From: a virus
Taxonomy: Duplodnaviria; Caudoviricetes
DNA: 64,000 bases
IMG/VR virus record: IMGVR_UViG_3300013121_000033
Location: 64,001-128,000 of that record
Reading direction: 5' to 3' (one strand)
Shown piece by piece: positions 2,739 through 22,181 of this stretch (its first letter is position 1; each line of letters begins with the position of its first letter). The notes beneath the pieces are model-generated. The model was given only the letters and a program-made list of their open reading frames with translations, ran no database searches and was not told the DNA's origin. Position numbers and translations under genes: made by a program.

Positions 2739-5700
2739 GGCGCCACCGTACCCGCCGCTGCGGCGTCTCCCATCGCTGCGACGTCCACGGGGGCGTCCGG
2801 TGCGTCCGGTGCGCCACCTCCGATGCCGGGAAGCTGCGGGGTGAACGGTTGCGTTGTCGGCGTGGAAGGTTCAGCGATCGGGACGTCGACAGGTCGGACC
2901 GGGCGGATGTAGTCGAGGAAGTACGAGAACGCCTGCTCGGCTTCACGGCTGTACCCGCGGCGACGGTGGAACTTCGGGTGGGTGACCGTCGTGTAGAACT
3001 CGGCGATCAACTCGGCGCGGTTCGTTGCCGCATAGCGTGACACCTCAGCGATGACCGACTGGTTGTCGAGGACGTACTTGATGAACCGTTCACGTTCCCG
3101 GCGGCGGGTGTGTTCGAGTTTCCCGTCGATGACGTGGCCGAACTCGTGGCGGACGAGGCCGGTGACGGAACCGTCCGCCGAGAACGTCCACTTCCGTTTC
3201 GTCGCGTCGTCGAGGAACACTCCGTCGGGCACCATGCTTTTCGCGATGGGGCCGTCGGCGGGGTCGCCGATCTCGACGATCTCGTCGCCGACTTTCGTTC
3301 GGCTGCGTAGCAGTTCCGAGACGGCCGCCCACGCCGACGCGTCCGATTCGGCGCGTGACTTGTTGAACCCGATGACGGACGTACCGGTGACAACAAACGC
3401 GATCGTGTTCGGGTCGACGCCGTGAGAGAAGTAGCCGAACACGGGGGCGCCGAAGCTGTCGACCTGCGCGGCGAGCATCGGGCTGGACGCGACTGCTTCG
3501 GCCCATGACGCCATGGCGAGGTCGTGGTCTGCTGTCGCTTCGCTCCCGAAGCGGGCTCCGAACTTGTCGACCCAGAAGTCGGACAGCCCGGCCTTCTTGA
3601 ACTGTCCCGACCCGATCTGGTCGAGACTGTTCGCGGACTGCGCTGTCGGGAACGCTGCCCCGTCAGCGAACGCGTCGATGAGCCGCTTCCGAAGCTGGGC
3701 TTCGTCCATCCCAGCGTGGAGCAGGTTCCGCTGAGGCGGAGTCAGGTCGGAGGTGGCTTCGTGGCCGACGGCGATCTGGACGTCGGACCAGTTGAAGTCG
3801 GGGTGTTGAGCGAGAGCGGTGAGGACGGCAGTGGCGATCTTGTCGACGGCGGCGGTGTCGTCGGTGACGAGCCCGTTGCCCTTGATCTGGTCCGGTTCGG
3901 GGATCGCCGCGAGGATCGCCGAGGTGACGTCGGGTCGCTGTGCTGCAACGCGGTTGGTGCGGAGTTGGTCGGTGACGCGTTCGGCGAAGTCGATGAAGGC
4001 CCCGAGGCCGCCGACCTCGTAGCCGTTCTGGACTGCCATGAGGTCCGCGTCGGTGAACCCGTCGAGCGGCGGGAACGCTCCGATCGCAGACCCGAACTTG
4101 CGTGGTTGCGCCCCCATCGACTCTTGGAGCAGGTCGAGGTAGGCGATCGTGCTGCCGATCCGGTCAAGCGCGATCTGGTCGCCGCCGCGGGCGATGGCGA
4201 TGAGGTCGGGGAGGGTGGTTTCGAGGGTGCGGTTGAACTCGTCGAGTGCTGGACGGTTCCATCCGCCTTCGAGGCCGAGGGCGCGGGCTTCGGCGACGAG
4301 GTCCGCTGCCCGTTGGGTGGTGCGGCCGAATCGTTCGAGTCGCGCCGCTGTCGCCGCGTCGCTTTCCACGGTTCCGGTGCGGCGGAGGGCGTAGCGGATG
4401 GTGCCGACCTTCTTGCGGGCTTCGCCGATCTGGCCGAGAGTGACGTTCGGGTCGCCTGCCTGCCAGCGGGCTTCGAGGGTGCGGGCGACTGCCGTAGCAC
4501 GGTTCGCCCAATCTCCGGCGGCGAGGTCCGCTGCGGACATGTTGTAGGAGCGGACGTCGAGAACGGCTTGGAACTCGGAGGCCAGAACGTTGGGGTCGAG
4601 GATCAGCCCGGTGGGGTCGATGTCGGGGGCGTCGGGGATGGCGACGGGTTCGGTGACCCCTTCGTAGCCGTACTCTGCGAGACGTTCAGCGATCTGAGCG
4701 TCGAGTGCTTTGCGGGTCTTGGGGTCGAGGGTGTCGCGTTTCTCTGCGGCGTAGTTGAGCAGTGCGTTGACGGCGAGTGCTTTGCGTCGCTCGGAGGTGC
4801 CGGACTGGAAGTTCGAACCGCGGCCGTTGCGAGTGATTCGGGCTGCTGAGCCCCCCCACTCGAACGACTGCGAGTCGGTGCCCTTCATGATCTTGGCGTC
4901 CCAGATTCCGGTCTTGCGGTCGCGGCCGACGACGACATTCGAACCGCCCTTGTAGGAGCGGGTCACGGAGAGGCCGTCGGGGAGGAGGACGGTGACAGTC
5001 GACGACTCGGGGTTGAGGGTGTAGATGATCTCGGGTGACGCGTACCGGTCCGTCGAGTACGGGGCCGGTTCGCGCCATGCCGCGGTCGAGTCGTCGAACC
5101 CGGTGTAGTCCAGCGACGCCGTATCTGGCAACGGGTCCGGCCCGTTCGGCACGTCGACTGGTTCGTCGGGTTGTGACGGGGTGACCGCGAGGGTGGTGTC
5201 GGCGCCGACGAGGTCACGGAACGTGTCGTAGGGGATCAGGGTGCCGGACCCGGAACGGACGCCGTCGGATTCTGTCGTGTAGGTCGTCCCGGACGGCATC
5301 GTGACAGTCGATCCCAACGGGAAGTCGCGGAGGCCGTCCGGGGTCGACGGGCGCGTCTCGGGGACGTCCGGGTTGGGGGCGTCCGGTTCGGGGACCGGGG
5401 CGGCGAGGTTCGCTGCGGTCCATCCGTCCTGCCACGCCTTGAGAACGTCGATGTTGGACCCGACCTCCGGGTTGAGGACCAGGTTCTTGTCGAGGGCCGG
5501 GGCGTTCGTCTTGCCATCCCGGTATGCCTGCGCGCCGAGTTGGCGGGCCTCTTCGACCGTCGTGAACGGACGGTCCGGCACTTCCAGGGCCTCGGGGACG
5601 TCCGGGGTGGTGTCAGGGACGGAGTCGACGATCCACCGGTCGCCCCGAAGGCCCTGGCTGATCGCCCCCCACCCGTCGGCCGGGGGTGACCAGATGTCGC

Positions 5701-17335: not shown

Positions 17336-17893
17336 GTGGGTTGGAGTATCGGGTTCGATCAGCGGTGGCGCCGCGACGTCGGGTACGGGGTCCCGGCGAC
17401 GTGTGACTATCCGGGGTGCGAACGGTCGATCGACCGTGGCCTCGCGTTCGTGTGTGGCGGCCGCCCGTACGGCGGCGCGTTCGGGTGCGGCTTGTTCTTC
17501 TGCTCGGACCATCAGTTCGGCGTCGAGTTCCCCCTCGGTGACCTCACCCCGAGCGAGGTCGAACCCGACGGCCTGGTAAGCGTCGACGACGACGGCAACC
17601 CGGTCATCTATGTCGGGCAGGTGTGTGAACGGTGCGCCGACTTCCTTCAAGCTGGCGGCGACCTCGAACCGTTCACCCCGTCACTGGACACCGTCGAGTG
17701 GATGGCGTTCAAGCTGCTCCACCCGTCGTGGCAAGAGTGGCGCGACGGGCACGCCGACGAGGTGTCAGCGATGCGCCAGTCGATCATCGACCGGCTGCCG
17801 TTGATGCCTCCCGACGCGATCTCCCGGATCGTCGCCGAGTTCGAGTTCGACGACATCAACGCCGACGACACCCGGCGTCTCTTGCGCCTCTAG
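17336..17893 (+). CDS. Cys-rich hypothetical phage protein
   Basis: AGGAGG SD; MGWSIG...RDVGYGVPATCD.PGC...IDRGL..VCG...GCGLFFC..H. Confidence 0.7.
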   Translation: MGWSIGFDQRWRRDVGYGVPATCDYPGCERSIDRGLAFVCGGRPYGGAFGCGLFFCSDHQFGVEFPLGDLTPSEVEPDGLVSVDDDGNPVIYVGQVCERCADFLQAGGDLEPFTPSLDTVEWMAFKLLHPSWQEWRDGHADEVSAMRQSIIDRLPLMPPDAISRIVAEFEFDDINADDTRRLLRL

Positions 17894-20800
17894 AACAGGG
17901 ACGGCTGGGCGTCGTCCACTGGCCGCCGTCGTTCCTGCACTCCTGCGTACTGGGGGCCTCCGCGGTAGCCGCGTTCGATCCGCTGGCGGATCAACGGCAG
18001 GTAGTCGCCGGTCTTTTCGACTGCGACCACGTTGAACCCTTCGAGGATCGCAGCCTCGATCGTGGTGCCGGACCCGGCGAACGGCTCAAGGATCACGCCC
18101 GGTCGGGATTCAAGGGGCGTCCCGCAGACACGACACCGCCGCAGTGCGGACAGATGACCGGCTTCCGCGGCTTCGGCAGCCTGTCGTGCTCGCGCTTCGG
18201 GAGCACTTCCAGATTCTCCGGCCGGTTGTCCGCCTTGTCGCCGTTCTTGTGGTGCACGACCTCGTCGGCGGTCAGCATCCGACCCAAGTGCTCCGCCATG
18301 ACCATCCGATGCACCAACACCATCCCGGTCTTCGACGCCATCGGGTGCTCCGGTCGATACACGGCCAGGTAGCCCCGTGGCGTCACGGTTGGCGTGGTCT
18401 TGCGTCGGGAGAGACCCGCCGCCTTTGCGGCACACGCCCGCGAGCAGAACCGTGTCGTCTTCGCTCGCGGCGAGAATGTCGTCCCGCACTTCTCGCACGC
18501 TCGCTCGGGGATTGGCGTGCGGCCCCGCATCGCCTCCGCCGCGCACGTCGGTGAGCAGAACTTCTGACGCGCCCTCCTCGTCGTCGTTCCGCACACGGGA
18601 CACGGGGAGCGGGGAATCACCCGGCTCGCCGCCCGGCACGCGTCGGAGCAATACGTCGCCTCCGCCCGCTTGACTGTCGTCCCGCACAGGGGGCACGTCG
18701 TCAAGGGGTGCTTCCGTGCTCGCCCGGCGGCCTTGTTCCTGCACCGCACCGAACAGACGATCTGTTCCGGTCTGTTGGGTGTGAACGGTTCTTGGCATTC
18801 TCTGCACAGCTTCACGATCAGGCAGCGTAGAACACGCGGGGCAGTGCCATGTGGACGGCGGGGTCACCAACCTGCACAGCCAGCGCATCAACGCGAGCGG
18901 TTTCACCGTCGGATGCCGGGTCCCGTCCTCCCCGACCGGTCGTTCCGACGACGGCGCCTTCGCGACGTACATGAACGCCGGATCGGGTAGCTCCACCTCG
19001 AACGTCGGGAAGAACCGCGACGCCCCGCCCGTGTCGCTGTACTCCGCTCCCGTTCTTCGCATACCGAACCCTTTGCCGCCGTCACGAGTCCATGACGACT
19101 CCTCGGTCCCGCGCCGCTCACTCCCAGGTCGACCGGACACGTCCCCGGACTGTTCGTCGAGCGCGGCGACCGGACACCCCGGCTCGCACTCCCACTCCGG
19201 CACATGCCGCCAACGGTTCCATTCGCTGGCTCCCGACTCAGCGCTCGTCTTGCCACCTTCGTAGCCGACCTTGCCTGGGGTCTTGACGGTGCGGGTGCCG
19301 ACCTGTCGGCACCCCTCGGAATGGGAGAACGTGAAGTAGTCGGACCACCCGGGCGGGATCAACTCAGCCGGGATCGCAACTCCGCGTTCTCCGCCCGGAG
19401 CCGTTCCACCTCGATCAGCAACATCGCGTACTGTCGCTCGATCTCCCGATGACCCACCGAATGCGCCGCCCTCGGGACCACAGTCAGGTTCTCCGGGCGG
19501 TTGTCCGCCTTCTCCCCATTCTCGTGGTGCACCACCTCGTTCGTCGTCAGCGGCCGTCCCAGCTTCGCTGCTGCTACCGCCCGGTGCTCCGCCACGTACC
19601 GCTGTGTCGGCTTGACCATCTGCCTGACGAGCGCTTGCGTCGCCTCGGGGAGCAGGTCGATCATCACGAACCGGTAGCCCCCGCTGTTCGTGTAGGTCCC
19701 GCCCTTCCACTGCGACGATCGTTCCTTCACGTACCGGCCCGTCGCTGCCGCCGACATCTTCGCCCGCGCCTCCGTGGTGTGTGCCTTCCCCAGCCGGTTC
19801 CGGTTCCTTGCGTTCGCTGCCTGTCGGCATCGAGCCGAGCAGTACCGGCGACGACCGTTTCGCACCCACCCCGGAGTCACCTCGAACGGCTCGTTGCACT
19901 GACGACAGTTGATCGTCACCCACTCCGTCTTGCGGACCCCCTTCCGCGAAGCCCCCGTGCACGCCATCGAGCAAAACTTCCGTCTCGCCAGGTCCGACGG
20001 CATCCCCCAAATCGGCTCGCCGCAGTGGGCGCAAGGCTTCGAGATTGCCGTAGTAGGCAACGATCGCATCTTCGACTTCGGCGGGGAGGTCATCGCGGAG
20101 AGCGTAGTAGTCATACCGCAGATGCGACATCACGAAGTTGGCGGGCCACCGGCCCTCGGTGGTCGTGCCGACCGCTTTCGATCCGCCGTCGAACCCCGAC
20201 CCGGCGTTCTGCCTGCCCGCGTACACGGCCCCGTTAGCCGATTCCTTCGGGTCGATCTCACGGGCTGGTCGCCCACCGGCCTCCGTCGGAGCGACCCGTG
20301 TGCCGTCGATGTTGAGTGCGCCGGTGCCGTGTTCGAGCACGTTCGCGGCGAGGGTGCCTGACAGCGGCTTGCGGGCGAGAAGGATGGGCTCATGAGCGGG
20401 CTTCAACGCCGTCCCCCATGACGACCACCGCTCGGCAAGGTCCGAGGTAGGGACCCGCTCGACGCGCTCGCCAACCCATCGTTCACCGTCGCCCTGGTAG
20501 CCAAAATCACCACGGGTGATGGCGACAACCTCGTCGCCCCGCTCCATCGCTTCATCGAACGGCGTGACGTCGAGCCCCATCGCCACCTTGATCCTCGGCC
20601 ACAGCCCCGGCTCGGGCAGGCTGATCCCGTCCTCCCAGTTCCGCACGTTCCCGTCCGACCGACCATCGAAGATCGCCCGCTCAAACTCGGCACGCGATAA
20701 CCCCAGTTCCTCGCGACGCGCCCGCATGAACACGACCGCCTCCCGCGCCGCTAGTGCACCACCCGCACGCTTCGCGATCGCCTTCCCAACATTCATGGAC

Positions 20801-22156
20801 TTCGGGAAGCCTGAGTTGCCGGTGATGAACACCTTGCCGTTGCGGCGAGCAACAAACGCGCCCGAGGGTACGCCGATGCACCACACCTCACCCGTGTAGC
20901 TCTCCCACATCGCAGCGTCCAGGTGCCTGTGCTGTAGCTCAGTCGTGGCCGTCTGGCGGGCGTACACAGCGCCACCCGAGCGACCGGTGGCCGGGTCTCG
21001 CATCCCGACCTTCCCGGCCCGCCCGGTGAGGGCTAGCAAGGTCTGGAACCACACGAGGTCGTCCTCGTGCTTCTGGAAGAACTGCCATGCCCCGAGCGCC
21101 CCTCGCTTCCGTTGCTGGTGGCCGTCGCCGAGTAGCGCCGCTTCGAGCAACGCCTCCTTCTCCGCTGCCGTCATCCGCCACAGCAGTTCGTACGTGGGCC
21201 GCTTGCCGGGGAGGTCCGCCCGCACGCGGTTCGCTAGGTCGCCGGAGAAGAACCACGTCGTTTCGACGTACTCACGGTCGCGGTAGGTGCGGGTCCGGTC
21301 GTATCGCTTGTGGGTGCCGAGACGATCCATGAGAGCAGCAATCTGCGCCACCTTGTCAGAGTTGACACTCGACTGGTAAATCCGCACGCCGGTGCCAGAC
21401 AGATCGAACCCGCCTTCGGTCCATACCCAGCCGAGCAGCGCTGCGTAGTCGGTACCGCCGATGCCGGGGCCGTCGTGTAGCCCCGCGACTGGCAACCGGA
21501 GGCGGCGGGCCGGGCGCAGGTCGGCAGCTTCAGCGACGGTCCACACGTTGTCGTACCACTCGCGGCGAACCCCGTTGGTCATCCGCCGTTGGGAGCGCTG
21601 GTGCCAGACACGGTGGTTCGGGGTGAGCATCTGATCGGTGTCGGCATTGCGGAGCACGGTCATGGGACCGTCCCACGGTGCCCGGTAGGTGCGATCGACT
21701 GCGGCGAGAGTTACCGCTCCCGTCGCTGGGTCCCACTGTGCGACGAGGTCGCCTTCCACAAGGTCGATGCCAGAACGCCAACCCGTCGGGGTCAGCACCT
21801 CGACATCGTCGGTGAGGCACCCGTAGACCCAGTGGATCGAGTCTCTGATCTCGAACCCGGCGTCCTCAACCCCCGAAGCCAACCGGTGATAGCAGCGGGT
21901 CGCGCCGAACGCGACCAGGTGGCCGCCCGGTTTCAGCACACGGAAGCATTCCGCAGCCCACTCGCGGCACCACTCCTCGAACCGGCGCGGCGACTCGAAC
22001 GCATCCCAACTCGAACCCATGAAGCCGCCGCCCGGGAAGGCATAAGGCGGGTCCGTCACGAACTGCGTCGATCGAGCAGTCAGGGAGGGTGGGGAGGATG
22101 TCCTCGACGCGGCCGTGGTGGATCGCGACGCGGTCGTCGGTGTACCAGATGGTCAC
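17890..22156 (-). CDS. N4/N6 DNA methyltransferase carrying an intein, an XRE-HTH and two overprinted HNH inserts; +1 nt frameshift near 22060
   Basis: TDPPY, RVLKPGG, GFPKS, WGTALKPAHEPI, GRWPAN, HPTVKP, EPFAGSGTT. The N-terminal strand (..IHHGRVEDILPTLPDCSIDAV) from GTG 22156 is in a different frame from DPPY. Confidence 0.85.
18093..18815 (-). CDS. HNH homing endonuclease overprinted (+1 frame) inside the methyltransferase
   Basis: Four CxxC...CSxxC zinc repeats, then GY..VY.PEHP...VLVHRMVMAEHLGRML...EVVHHKNGDKADNRPENL; TACGCT 8 nt upstream of GTG. Confidence 0.9.
   Translation of the reverse strand: MKLCRECQEPFTPNRPEQIVCSVRCRNKAAGRARKHPLTTCPLCGTTVKRAEATYCSDACRAASRVIPRSPCPVCGTTTRRARQKFCSPTCAAEAMRGRTPIPERACEKCGTTFSPRAKTTRFCSRACAAKAAGLSRRKTTPTVTPRGYLAVYRPEHPMASKTGMVLVHRMVMAEHLGRMLTADEVVHHKNGDKADNRPENLEVLPKREHDRLPKPRKPVICPHCGGVVSAGRPLNPDRA
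19359..20093 (-). CDS. Second HNH homing endonuclease overprinted (+1 frame) inside the methyltransferase
   Basis: Two zinc repeats, NUMOD3-like GKAHTTEARAKMS, WKGG, YVAEHR...LGRPL...EVVHHENGEKADNRPENL; TACGCT 7 nt upstream of ATG 20093. Confidence 0.9.
   Translation of the reverse strand: MTSPPKSKMRSLPTTAISKPCAHCGEPIWGMPSDLARRKFCSMACTGASRKGVRKTEWVTINCRQCNEPFEVTPGWVRNGRRRYCSARCRQAANARNRNRLGKAHTTEARAKMSAAATGRYVKERSSQWKGGTYTNSGGYRFVMIDLLPEATQALVRQMVKPTQRYVAEHRAVAAAKLGRPLTTNEVVHHENGEKADNRPENLTVVPRAAHSVGHREIERQYAMLLIEVERLRAENAELRSRLS
20815..21819 (-). mobile_element. Intein (335 aa) with LAGLIDADG-type endonuclease in methyltransferase
   Basis: WVYG|CLTDDVEVLTPTGW ... LLGWVWTEG ... LLEAALLGDG ... 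RRNGKVFITGN|SGFPKS; removal restores WVYGSGFPKS. Confidence 0.9.
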
Positions 22157-22181
22157 AGGTGGGGGAGCGTAGGCGAAGGGG

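Follow-up and report, generated by a model that had tools for sequence, protein, structure and literature searches.

A hidden out-of-frame HNH cassette ahead of motif I of a viral DNA methylase, with a host-frame cysteine bracket that probably serves as a zinc-ribbon-like clasp

The methylase gene and its second insert

We analysed a stretch of 64,000 nucleotides (hereafter the window) covering positions 64,001 to 128,000 of IMG/VR virus record IMGVR_UViG_3300013121_000033 (Duplodnaviria; Caudoviricetes), a 225 kb record with a GC content of ~67%. On its minus strand lies an open frame of 1389 codons for an N6/N4 DNA methylase (17890..22059; PF01555, E=2.3e-18), which opens with motif IV (VTDPPY, including DPPY), has FAGSGTT close to its end, runs through to the C-terminus and holds one intein and two HNH inserts. 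The subject of this report is insert 2, a cassette of 756 nt (18100..18855, minus strand; 252 host-frame codons, S1069-P1320) in which a homing-type HNH endonuclease gene is overprinted on the methylase frame. It is preceded by LVTPP, the end of the motif X helix (residues 1064-1068; 18856..18870, minus strand), and followed by GVILEPF, which starts at residue 1321 (18099), where the methylase frame resumes as GVILEPFAGSGTT and leads into motif I, FAGSGTT (18061..18081, minus strand). A megablast search of GenBank phages returned only a 115-nt methylase match, indicating that there is no close cultured relative among them.

Comparison with 69 insert-free viral relatives, these being the relatives of the window methylase whose frames could be followed, indicates that insert 2 is real. 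In all of them the last proline of LVTPP is followed by one codon and then by G.VLDPF, without cysteines, where the window has 252 codons, a net gain of 251. Two further proteins, P0320 and P0195, are likewise uninterrupted at this site. The comparison bears out an earlier note on this DNA, which had placed the insert just before motif I, in the LVTPP-GxxLxPF loop. Insert 2 contains no host-frame stop and its length is a multiple of three.

Nested in the insert is HNH2 (18093..18815, minus strand), a gene for a homing-type HNH_3 endonuclease of 240 aa that starts with GTG at 18815 and is in the +1 frame with respect to the methylase. Its product matches PF13392 (HNH_3; E=2.7e-14, 52.9 bits against a cut-off of 24.8) and comprises four CxxC...CxxxC zinc-finger repeats at residues 4-128 (18432..18806, minus strand), presumed to bind DNA, and an HNH catalytic core at residues 167-212 (18180..18317, minus strand), to which the Pfam match belongs. 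The signature VVHHKNG..DNR.ENLE...H is invariant in the nested relatives of HNH2, and the HH..N...N..H motif was found.

When insert 2 is read in the methylase frame it is bracketed by two cysteine pairs. The 5' knuckle, CPAC (residues 1073-1076; 18832..18843, minus strand), lies upstream of the HNH start codon and is therefore encoded by the host frame alone, and the 3' knuckle, CRVC (residues 1309-1312; 18124..18135, minus strand), is overprinted on the weakly conserved HNH tail. Both pairs occur in the methylase frame exactly where the earlier note had put them (18843-18832 and 18135-18124), and 232 residues separate them, close to its estimate of about 235. Between the knuckles the host-frame loop consists of 16% ILVFMWY and 80% G/S/P/E/D/R/K/Q/T/A; its scarcity of hydrophobic residues follows from the register of the two frames, in which host codon position 2 is HNH codon position 1. 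CRVC is distinct from CPHC of the HNH frame (18141..18152, minus strand), a pair that is invariant across the aligned nested relatives; CRVC starts 6 nt farther downstream. A frameshift fusion from the HNH to the host frame that would join CPHC to CRVC was considered and rejected, as the two pairs would stand two residues apart in the window and the product would be an odd fusion of HNH and methylase tail.

The earlier note had also assigned a promoter role to the hexamer TACGCT (18824..18829, minus strand), which lies 8 nt before the HNH2 GTG (18815). The hexamer does lie just after CPAC (18829-18824), but a match to TANNNT is all that speaks for the role, and a sigma-70 consensus scan found no promoter. 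Among the relatives described below, some have a TANNNT box at leaderless spacing and others lack it.

Conservation of the cysteine bracket and selection on two frames

IMG/VR was searched with an HNH alignment for relatives of HNH2. At the six loci nearest to HNH2 (L084/L086, a single locus, and L087-L091; 41-52% identity) the HNH gene is in every case nested at +1 in a long methylase frame that stays open, with motif I directly after the HNH stop; a further ~75 HNH_3 genes, more distantly related, are free-standing. When one genome per prokaryote species was scanned, two more loci emerged: L167, from a Steroidobacteraceae metagenome-assembled genome (MAG), and L184, from a Cloacimonadota MAG of 40% GC. 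Both are also nested at +1 in a methylase frame just before motif I, as are L247 and L249. Protein searches yielded fourteen more carriers (P0122-P0127, P0129, P0136, P0218, P0221-P0225 and P0227), with P0126 and P0136 confirmed at the DNA level as L247 and L249, respectively. In total we consider 24 carriers, 11 at the DNA level and 13 at the protein level.

All 24 carriers have a Cx2-3C pair 4-8 residues past the 5' junction and a CxxC pair 10-22 residues before hLDPF, so that both cysteine pairs are kept in every insert-bearing homolog (24/24), as the earlier note had expected. The residues between the cysteines vary, with PA, PN, VD, PR, TV, VS, VK, SV, PS and ET found in the 5' pair and RV, AH, PA, PT, PH, PD, PQ, ST, PE and PK in the 3' pair, so that it is the cysteines, rather than the DNA sequence, that are conserved. 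The carriers come from more than one phylum, differ in GC content and belong to several methylase subfamilies; the host subfamilies include that of the window (HPTVKP...LVTPP), those with SPPYWGLRDYG and GAHYAV.P.EL, and one with a native ribbon of the form CCAxCG...GWxPxCxC. In 9/9 loci examined, 13-37 nt separate the 5' pair from the first HNH start codon downstream of it, so that there too the pair is encoded by the host frame alone. At five loci (L087, L089, L090, L091 and L167) a TAG is found exactly four codons upstream of the HNH start (TAGNNN + 6 nt + ATG/GTG), and reads V/A-L-E/D in the host frame, corresponding to the strand that follows the first knuckle. This TAG may act as a stop closing the HNH frame or as a -10-like box, or may simply reflect conservation of the host frame.

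Signs of mobility are seen in the L084 sub-lineage. In P0002-P0006 the cassette is 93-99% identical, the common part including GCPELYCVDCGRPLTVVE and RCPACGSTNLAK, compared with 57-72% identity in the N-terminal flank, and such near-identity within diverged flanks is indicative of recent lateral spread. The window's own cassette has no near-identical partner in the collections searched. Because the cysteine pairs are absent from the insert-free relatives of the window family (n=69), they belong to the cassette. P0126 contains a second related hidden HNH in the +1 frame, at residues ~95-300 (L247:476-1108), which occupies the methylase intein site and is bracketed in the host frame by VFCRCGS ... 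PGCPRCGKPLE, suggesting that the cysteine bracket can travel with the cassette to a different site.

A decayed example is provided by P0218, the closest relative of the window protein (63-71% identity in aligned blocks), in which an in-frame deletion of ~149 codons (equivalent to P0001 residues 1081-1229) has removed the HNH start and all four fingers. The protein keeps SSWHCPAC, RRCGVCGTPLETRPGV, RRCGVCGTPLETRPGVILDPF and an open frame; decay of its HNH gene is deduced from the host-frame deletion alone. By analogy P0218 may be compared to a mini-intein, in which the nuclease decays and the part that spares the host stays. On the P0218 contig (JGI sample 3300056388) gene calling gives two methylase genes, of 148 aa and 476 aa, on either side of an HNH gene of the PF01844 type, so that a single methylase lineage appears to show a true split by one nuclease gene as well as a degenerate cassette with its clasp.

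In insert-free relatives of P0002-P0006, the group of the L084 methylase, this position is occupied by a native zinc ribbon, CCPECGAPWERVVE ... PTCDHG, enclosing a variable loop of ~40-80 residues. The presence of this ribbon before motif I suggests that a metal-closed loop is structurally acceptable to the methylase fold, and it is a plausible evolutionary source of the bracket carried by the cassette.

Codon choice was assessed by permuting synonymous codons inside each HNH open reading frame (ORF), which leaves the protein and the codon set unchanged. On average the permuted sequences contained 2-10 host-frame stops per insert, compared with none observed at every locus. The probability of zero stops was 0.075 for insert 2 of the window and 0.0017 for its insert 1, 0 to 0.006 for the six viral relatives and 2.5e-4 for L167, and for L184 it was 0 in 20,000 permutations; the product over the first eight inserts is ~1e-25. 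As a genome baseline, the relevant overlapping frame is free of stops across 240 codons in ~10-13% of genomic windows. The 3' CxxC was recreated in 0.8-26% of permutations per locus (2.3% for the window), and the cysteine codons of CRVC depend on HNH-frame codons that are rare in this genome, namely GGT (13% of Gly) and TCT (3% of Ser).

Among relatives with a C-terminal knuckle, a downstream CxxC in the -1 frame is present in 8/8 nested HNHs versus 2/37 free-standing ones, and one of the two free-standing exceptions (L178) itself looks nested, in a ligase-like gene. This contrast, combined with the rarity of the pair under permutation, argues that the 3' CxxC is not a by-product of the HNH tail. 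The HNH frame outscores the host-frame loop in 55/55 locus pairs (median local BLOSUM 313 vs 111), identifying the host-frame loop as the passenger. The permutations and the nested versus free-standing contrast indicate that the open host frame and the 3' pair are not due to chance and are under selection on codon choice. On the sequence evidence, then, insert 2 and its relatives carry a functional nuclease gene whose codon choice keeps a second frame readable and gives it cysteines at its end.

The L178 locus has an HNH2-family HNH (3300-4100) inside the ligase-like gene, which has a KIDGT motif, and its -1 frame reads ...ALRCPHCDGPED and then continues into host protein. The upstream and downstream host frames differ and contain stops, and the locus may represent either a nested element whose host is not a methylase or a more intricate arrangement.

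A candidate zinc clasp and competing explanations

AlphaFold2 models were read by predicted local distance difference test (pLDDT) scores and by DSSP. P0002, the 530-aa L084 methylase, was modelled from a 117-sequence alignment with a predicted template modelling score (pTM) of 0.72. Confidence is high in both knuckle blocks (pLDDT 95 at the 5' and 93 at the 3' block) and residues 371-456 fall below 50, and DSSP assigns strands at 303-305 and 311-318 around the first knuckle and at 480-482 after the second. Using Foldseek, this model aligns over its whole length with the beta-class methylases CcrM, M.BceJIV, RsrI and MboIIA at a template modelling (TM) score of ~0.75 (target-normalised). The window protein was modelled as residues 416-1389, leaving aside the intein and E1 (the first 80 residues, which include DPPY); pLDDT is ~70-78 at CPAC and 88 at CRVC, both HNH loops are below 50, and short strands are modelled at TWH and ESR. 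The models fit the expectation of the earlier note in showing confident knuckles, a loop of pLDDT below 50 between them and an intact beta-class methylase core. They predict that structured knuckles flank a disordered loop on an intact methylase fold, which is consistent with a clasp but no proof of one.

We consider it probable, though well short of certain, that insert 2 is a hidden out-of-frame HNH cassette with a zinc-ribbon-like clasp in the host frame, which is tolerated without splicing. According to this model a mobile homing-endonuclease cassette would sit between the motif X helix (LVTPP) and motif I (G.VLDPFxGSGTT) of a beta-class N6/N4 DNA methylase, its HNH gene being read in the +1 frame from an internal start of its own and the methylase frame running through. 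In the methylase frame the HNH gene would then give a hydrophilic, disordered loop of ~230 residues. The knuckles, Cx2-3C at the 5' end and CxxC(G) at the 3' end, would most likely chelate one zinc as a zinc-ribbon-like clasp, pinning the loop ends where the uninterrupted enzyme has 'PPGG' and allowing the flanking helix and strand to pack normally, so that neither RNA nor protein splicing would be needed. Conservation and modelling both support the clasp interpretation of the earlier note, in which the two CxxC halves bind one zinc and staple the ends of the insert together, and make this the most likely function of the pairs. We infer that zinc is bound, that the pairs act as a clasp, that read-through yields active enzyme and that the cassette homes by cleaving empty motif I sites.

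Several observations weigh against this model. The 5' pair is Cx3C in P0124, and the related cassette at the other site in P0126 opens with CxC. Few aligned sequences cover the knuckles, and their high pLDDT may reflect a learned zinc-knuckle motif. Insert 1 of the same gene is also stop-free (P=0.0017) and has no cysteine pair, indicating that a clasp is not strictly required for tolerance. Finally, the methylase N-terminus is one base out of frame in the window, and this copy may be a recent pseudogene or an assembly error.

The last of these points bears on the most serious alternative, that the methylase is dead in this genome and that its open frame and cysteine pairs are functionless relics, which we regard as possible but clearly less probable than the clasp model. 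The true N-terminus (GTG 22155 ... SIDAV; 22060..22155, minus strand) is in another frame than the rest of the gene, with one extra base between SIDAV and VTDPPY: GTG 22155 is followed by MTIWYTDDRVAIHHGRVEDILPTLPDCSIDAV and then GCA GTT C GTG ACG (window 22040-22160, minus strand), unlike homologs, which read ...SVDAIVTDPPY unbroken. A dead copy would also accord with reports that the methylase is dispensable in related phages (PMC11855218). Against this, the 1389-codon frame is fully open, as expected of an assembly error or of a mutation that is very recent, and the frameshift itself may be either a record or assembly error or a very recent inactivation. A dead gene would moreover concern the window's copy only and leave conservation across the family unexplained. 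Because of the frameshift, our conclusions on selection rest on the family and not on the window's copy.

The remaining explanations accept the insert and differ on what the cysteines do or on whether the insert stays in the protein. The pairs might be hitch-hiking remnants, acquired when a cassette took knuckles by co-conversion from a methylase with a native ribbon, the loop being tolerated as disordered and the cysteines idle. The native ribbon that relatives of the L084 methylase have at this site, the resemblance of the cassette's 5' knuckle to it (CVDCGRPLTVVE vs CPECGAPWERVVE) and the tolerance of insert 1 without any cysteine pair all fit such an origin, but we judge it unlikely, since both pairs are kept in 24/24 carriers despite HNH divergence to 41-55% identity and despite variable inter-cysteine residues, the 3' pair needs disfavoured HNH-frame codons, and both pairs have outlasted the loss of most of the HNH in P0218, where neutral remnants should have decayed. 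Somewhat less likely still is a genuine zinc ribbon with a role other than clamping the loop, for example as a DNA-contact element of the methylase or a regulatory element of the nuclease. Zinc ribbons frequently bind nucleic acid, which counts towards a DNA-contact role, and some insert-free methylases have a native ribbon at the same surface position. In the window's methylase family, however, no ribbon is found without the insert, unrelated hosts all have the ribbon precisely at the base of the loop, and the related cassette at the intein site of P0126 is bracketed too.

The least probable explanation, to which we attach very little weight, is that splicing of the RNA or the protein, by an unrecognised reaction, takes the insert out, or that separately expressed fragments reassemble, with a C-terminal piece initiated at a GTG that overlaps the HNH stop (GTGA). 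The window HNH stop TGA does overlap a host-frame GTG (18097-18095), and the P0218 contig has a methylase split into two called genes by another HNH gene. Yet this overlap of start and stop is found in the window only, the other ten loci having GTA, TTA or CTA, and translational coupling of a split gene was rejected on the ground that the GTGA overlap is unique to the window. The HNH ORF fills 723 of the 756 nt of the insert, and the 33 nt outside it leave no room for a ribozyme; an Rfam search of insert 2 found no intron family at E<=1, and Pfam found no intein domain in its host-frame reading. Insert 2 starts with Ser and ends with Pro (...ESRP), followed by Gly, and its interior is of low complexity and predicted to be disordered; it has neither intein-type residues nor a Hint fold. 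Selection against host-frame stops over the whole insert would also be unnecessary if the insert were removed or the gene split.

Relation to hidden HNH genes, inteins and native ribbons

Insertions of a comparable kind have been described in actinophages. The ShiLan domain of the mycobacteriophage methylase gp65 is an in-frame, stop-free insertion with a hidden HNH in another frame and without intein or intron features (PMC9957025; PMC11855218). Its distribution is patchy, it has diverged less than the host gene, and the proposal has been made that the protein retains it as a loop (Gosselin et al. 2023, PMC9957025; Arsenault, Gosselin and Gogarten 2025, PMC11855218); the insert of Pacc40 gp60 is a further case from this literature (PMC9957025; PMC11855218). 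Insert 2 shares with the ShiLan domain a PF01555 methylase host that also has an intein, a zinc-finger and HNH gene on the same strand in another frame, an in-frame stop-free insert with no intein or intron signature, and, to judge by the L084 sub-lineage, a patchy distribution that looks mobile. HNH2 is 35-41% identical to the hidden HNHs of Mantra and Bipolar. Insert 2 differs from the ShiLan case in lying immediately before motif I, in having its HNH in the +1 frame as opposed to the 'third frame' of the ShiLan HNH, and in the host-frame Cx2-3C and CxxC knuckles at its ends; its lineage also reaches past actinophages, to Gammaproteobacteria and Cloacimonadota MAGs. Host-frame cysteines are not mentioned in either ShiLan paper: in PMC11855218 'zinc' refers to the HNH frame only and 'ribbon' and 'CxxC' do not occur, and in PMC9957025 the words 'zinc' and 'cysteine' are absent. 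Hidden out-of-frame HNH inserts are thus already known, and a cassette-borne conserved cysteine clasp at motif I is, as far as the searched literature goes, unreported.

Other inserts in and beyond the window can be placed alongside these reports. Insert 1 of the window methylase (19321-20121, minus strand; HNH1 ORF 20114..19359) is distantly ShiLan-type, with 31-33% identity to the hidden HNHs of ShiLan, Mantra, Bipolar and others. Its flanks carry a degenerate duplication of 11 residues (GRWPANFVMSH / PGWSDYFTFSH) like the one published for ShiLan. Insert 1 lacks a cysteine bracket, and P0218 shows the corresponding empty site, RWPSNFVLSH|AEGC. The window intein is 335 residues long (20815-21819, minus strand; CLTDD ... 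VFITGN|S) and lies between IHWVYG and SGFPKS. Its penultimate residue is Gly rather than His, and Pfam gives a sub-threshold match to LAGLIDADG_3 (E=0.083). Hidden HNHs are also found at a third methylase site, after WGTALKPA.E, in L166 (Cylindrospermopsis phage Cr-LKS3 gp59, OM373202.1 39044-40894) and in L221, with another frame offset, duplicated flanks and no cysteine bracket; the Cr-LKS3 record labels the whole ORF 'DNA methylase'.

The 2025 description of hidden HNH genes left open how a 200-residue insertion that is never spliced is tolerated at a conserved site of an enzyme. The comparative data for the insert 2 lineage offer a testable answer, a mobile element which brings its own cysteine knuckles, selected in the host frame and probably closing the loop with zinc. 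It is possible, though we advance the idea tentatively, that a portable zinc-ribbon clasp is a third general way, besides introns and inteins, by which homing endonuclease genes colonise conserved protein-coding sites. The cassette may then supply a metal-held staple, and the endonuclease may occupy the overprinted frame that leaves the host reading hydrophilic and poor in stops. On this view the clasp also seems to serve at further sites and in further genes, as in CxC...CPRCG of P0126 and RCPHCDG beside the nested HNH of L178, and to outlast the decay of the endonuclease in P0218. If true, selfish genes would have a splicing-free way to live inside proteins, with selection acting on two overlapping frames at once, and the clasp might be borrowed as a natural design for building large loops into enzymes. 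There is also a warning for annotation: a long 'methylase' ORF with stretches of low complexity can conceal a second gene.

Like an intein, insert 2 places a homing endonuclease gene in a conserved site of a host protein while the host frame stays open and the ends of the insert are, on the clasp model, held together, and as with mini-inteins the endonuclease can apparently degenerate while the host-sparing part persists (P0218). Out-of-frame endonucleases have been reported inside inteins in a preprint on actinophage inteins, which does not mention zinc (bioRxiv 10.1101/2025.01.02.630785). Unlike inteins, insert 2 has no Hint fold or splicing residues, and it would stay in the mature protein with its ends joined by a metal site rather than by a peptide bond. 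The methylases with a native ribbon (for example P0007-P0013: CCPECGAPWERVVE ... PTCDHG ... GGTVLDPF) have the same surface position, a similar first knuckle and following strand, and a variable loop. They differ from insert 2 in that the loop is ~40-80 residues with no nested gene, the second knuckle is CxC/CxH and not CPxCG, and the ribbon is part of the host gene and not mobile. HNH2 itself resembles free-standing HNH_3 and I-HmuI-like endonucleases in its match to PF13392 and its N-terminal zinc-finger repeats, but unlike the free-standing cases its host gene is neither split nor interrupted by a stop.

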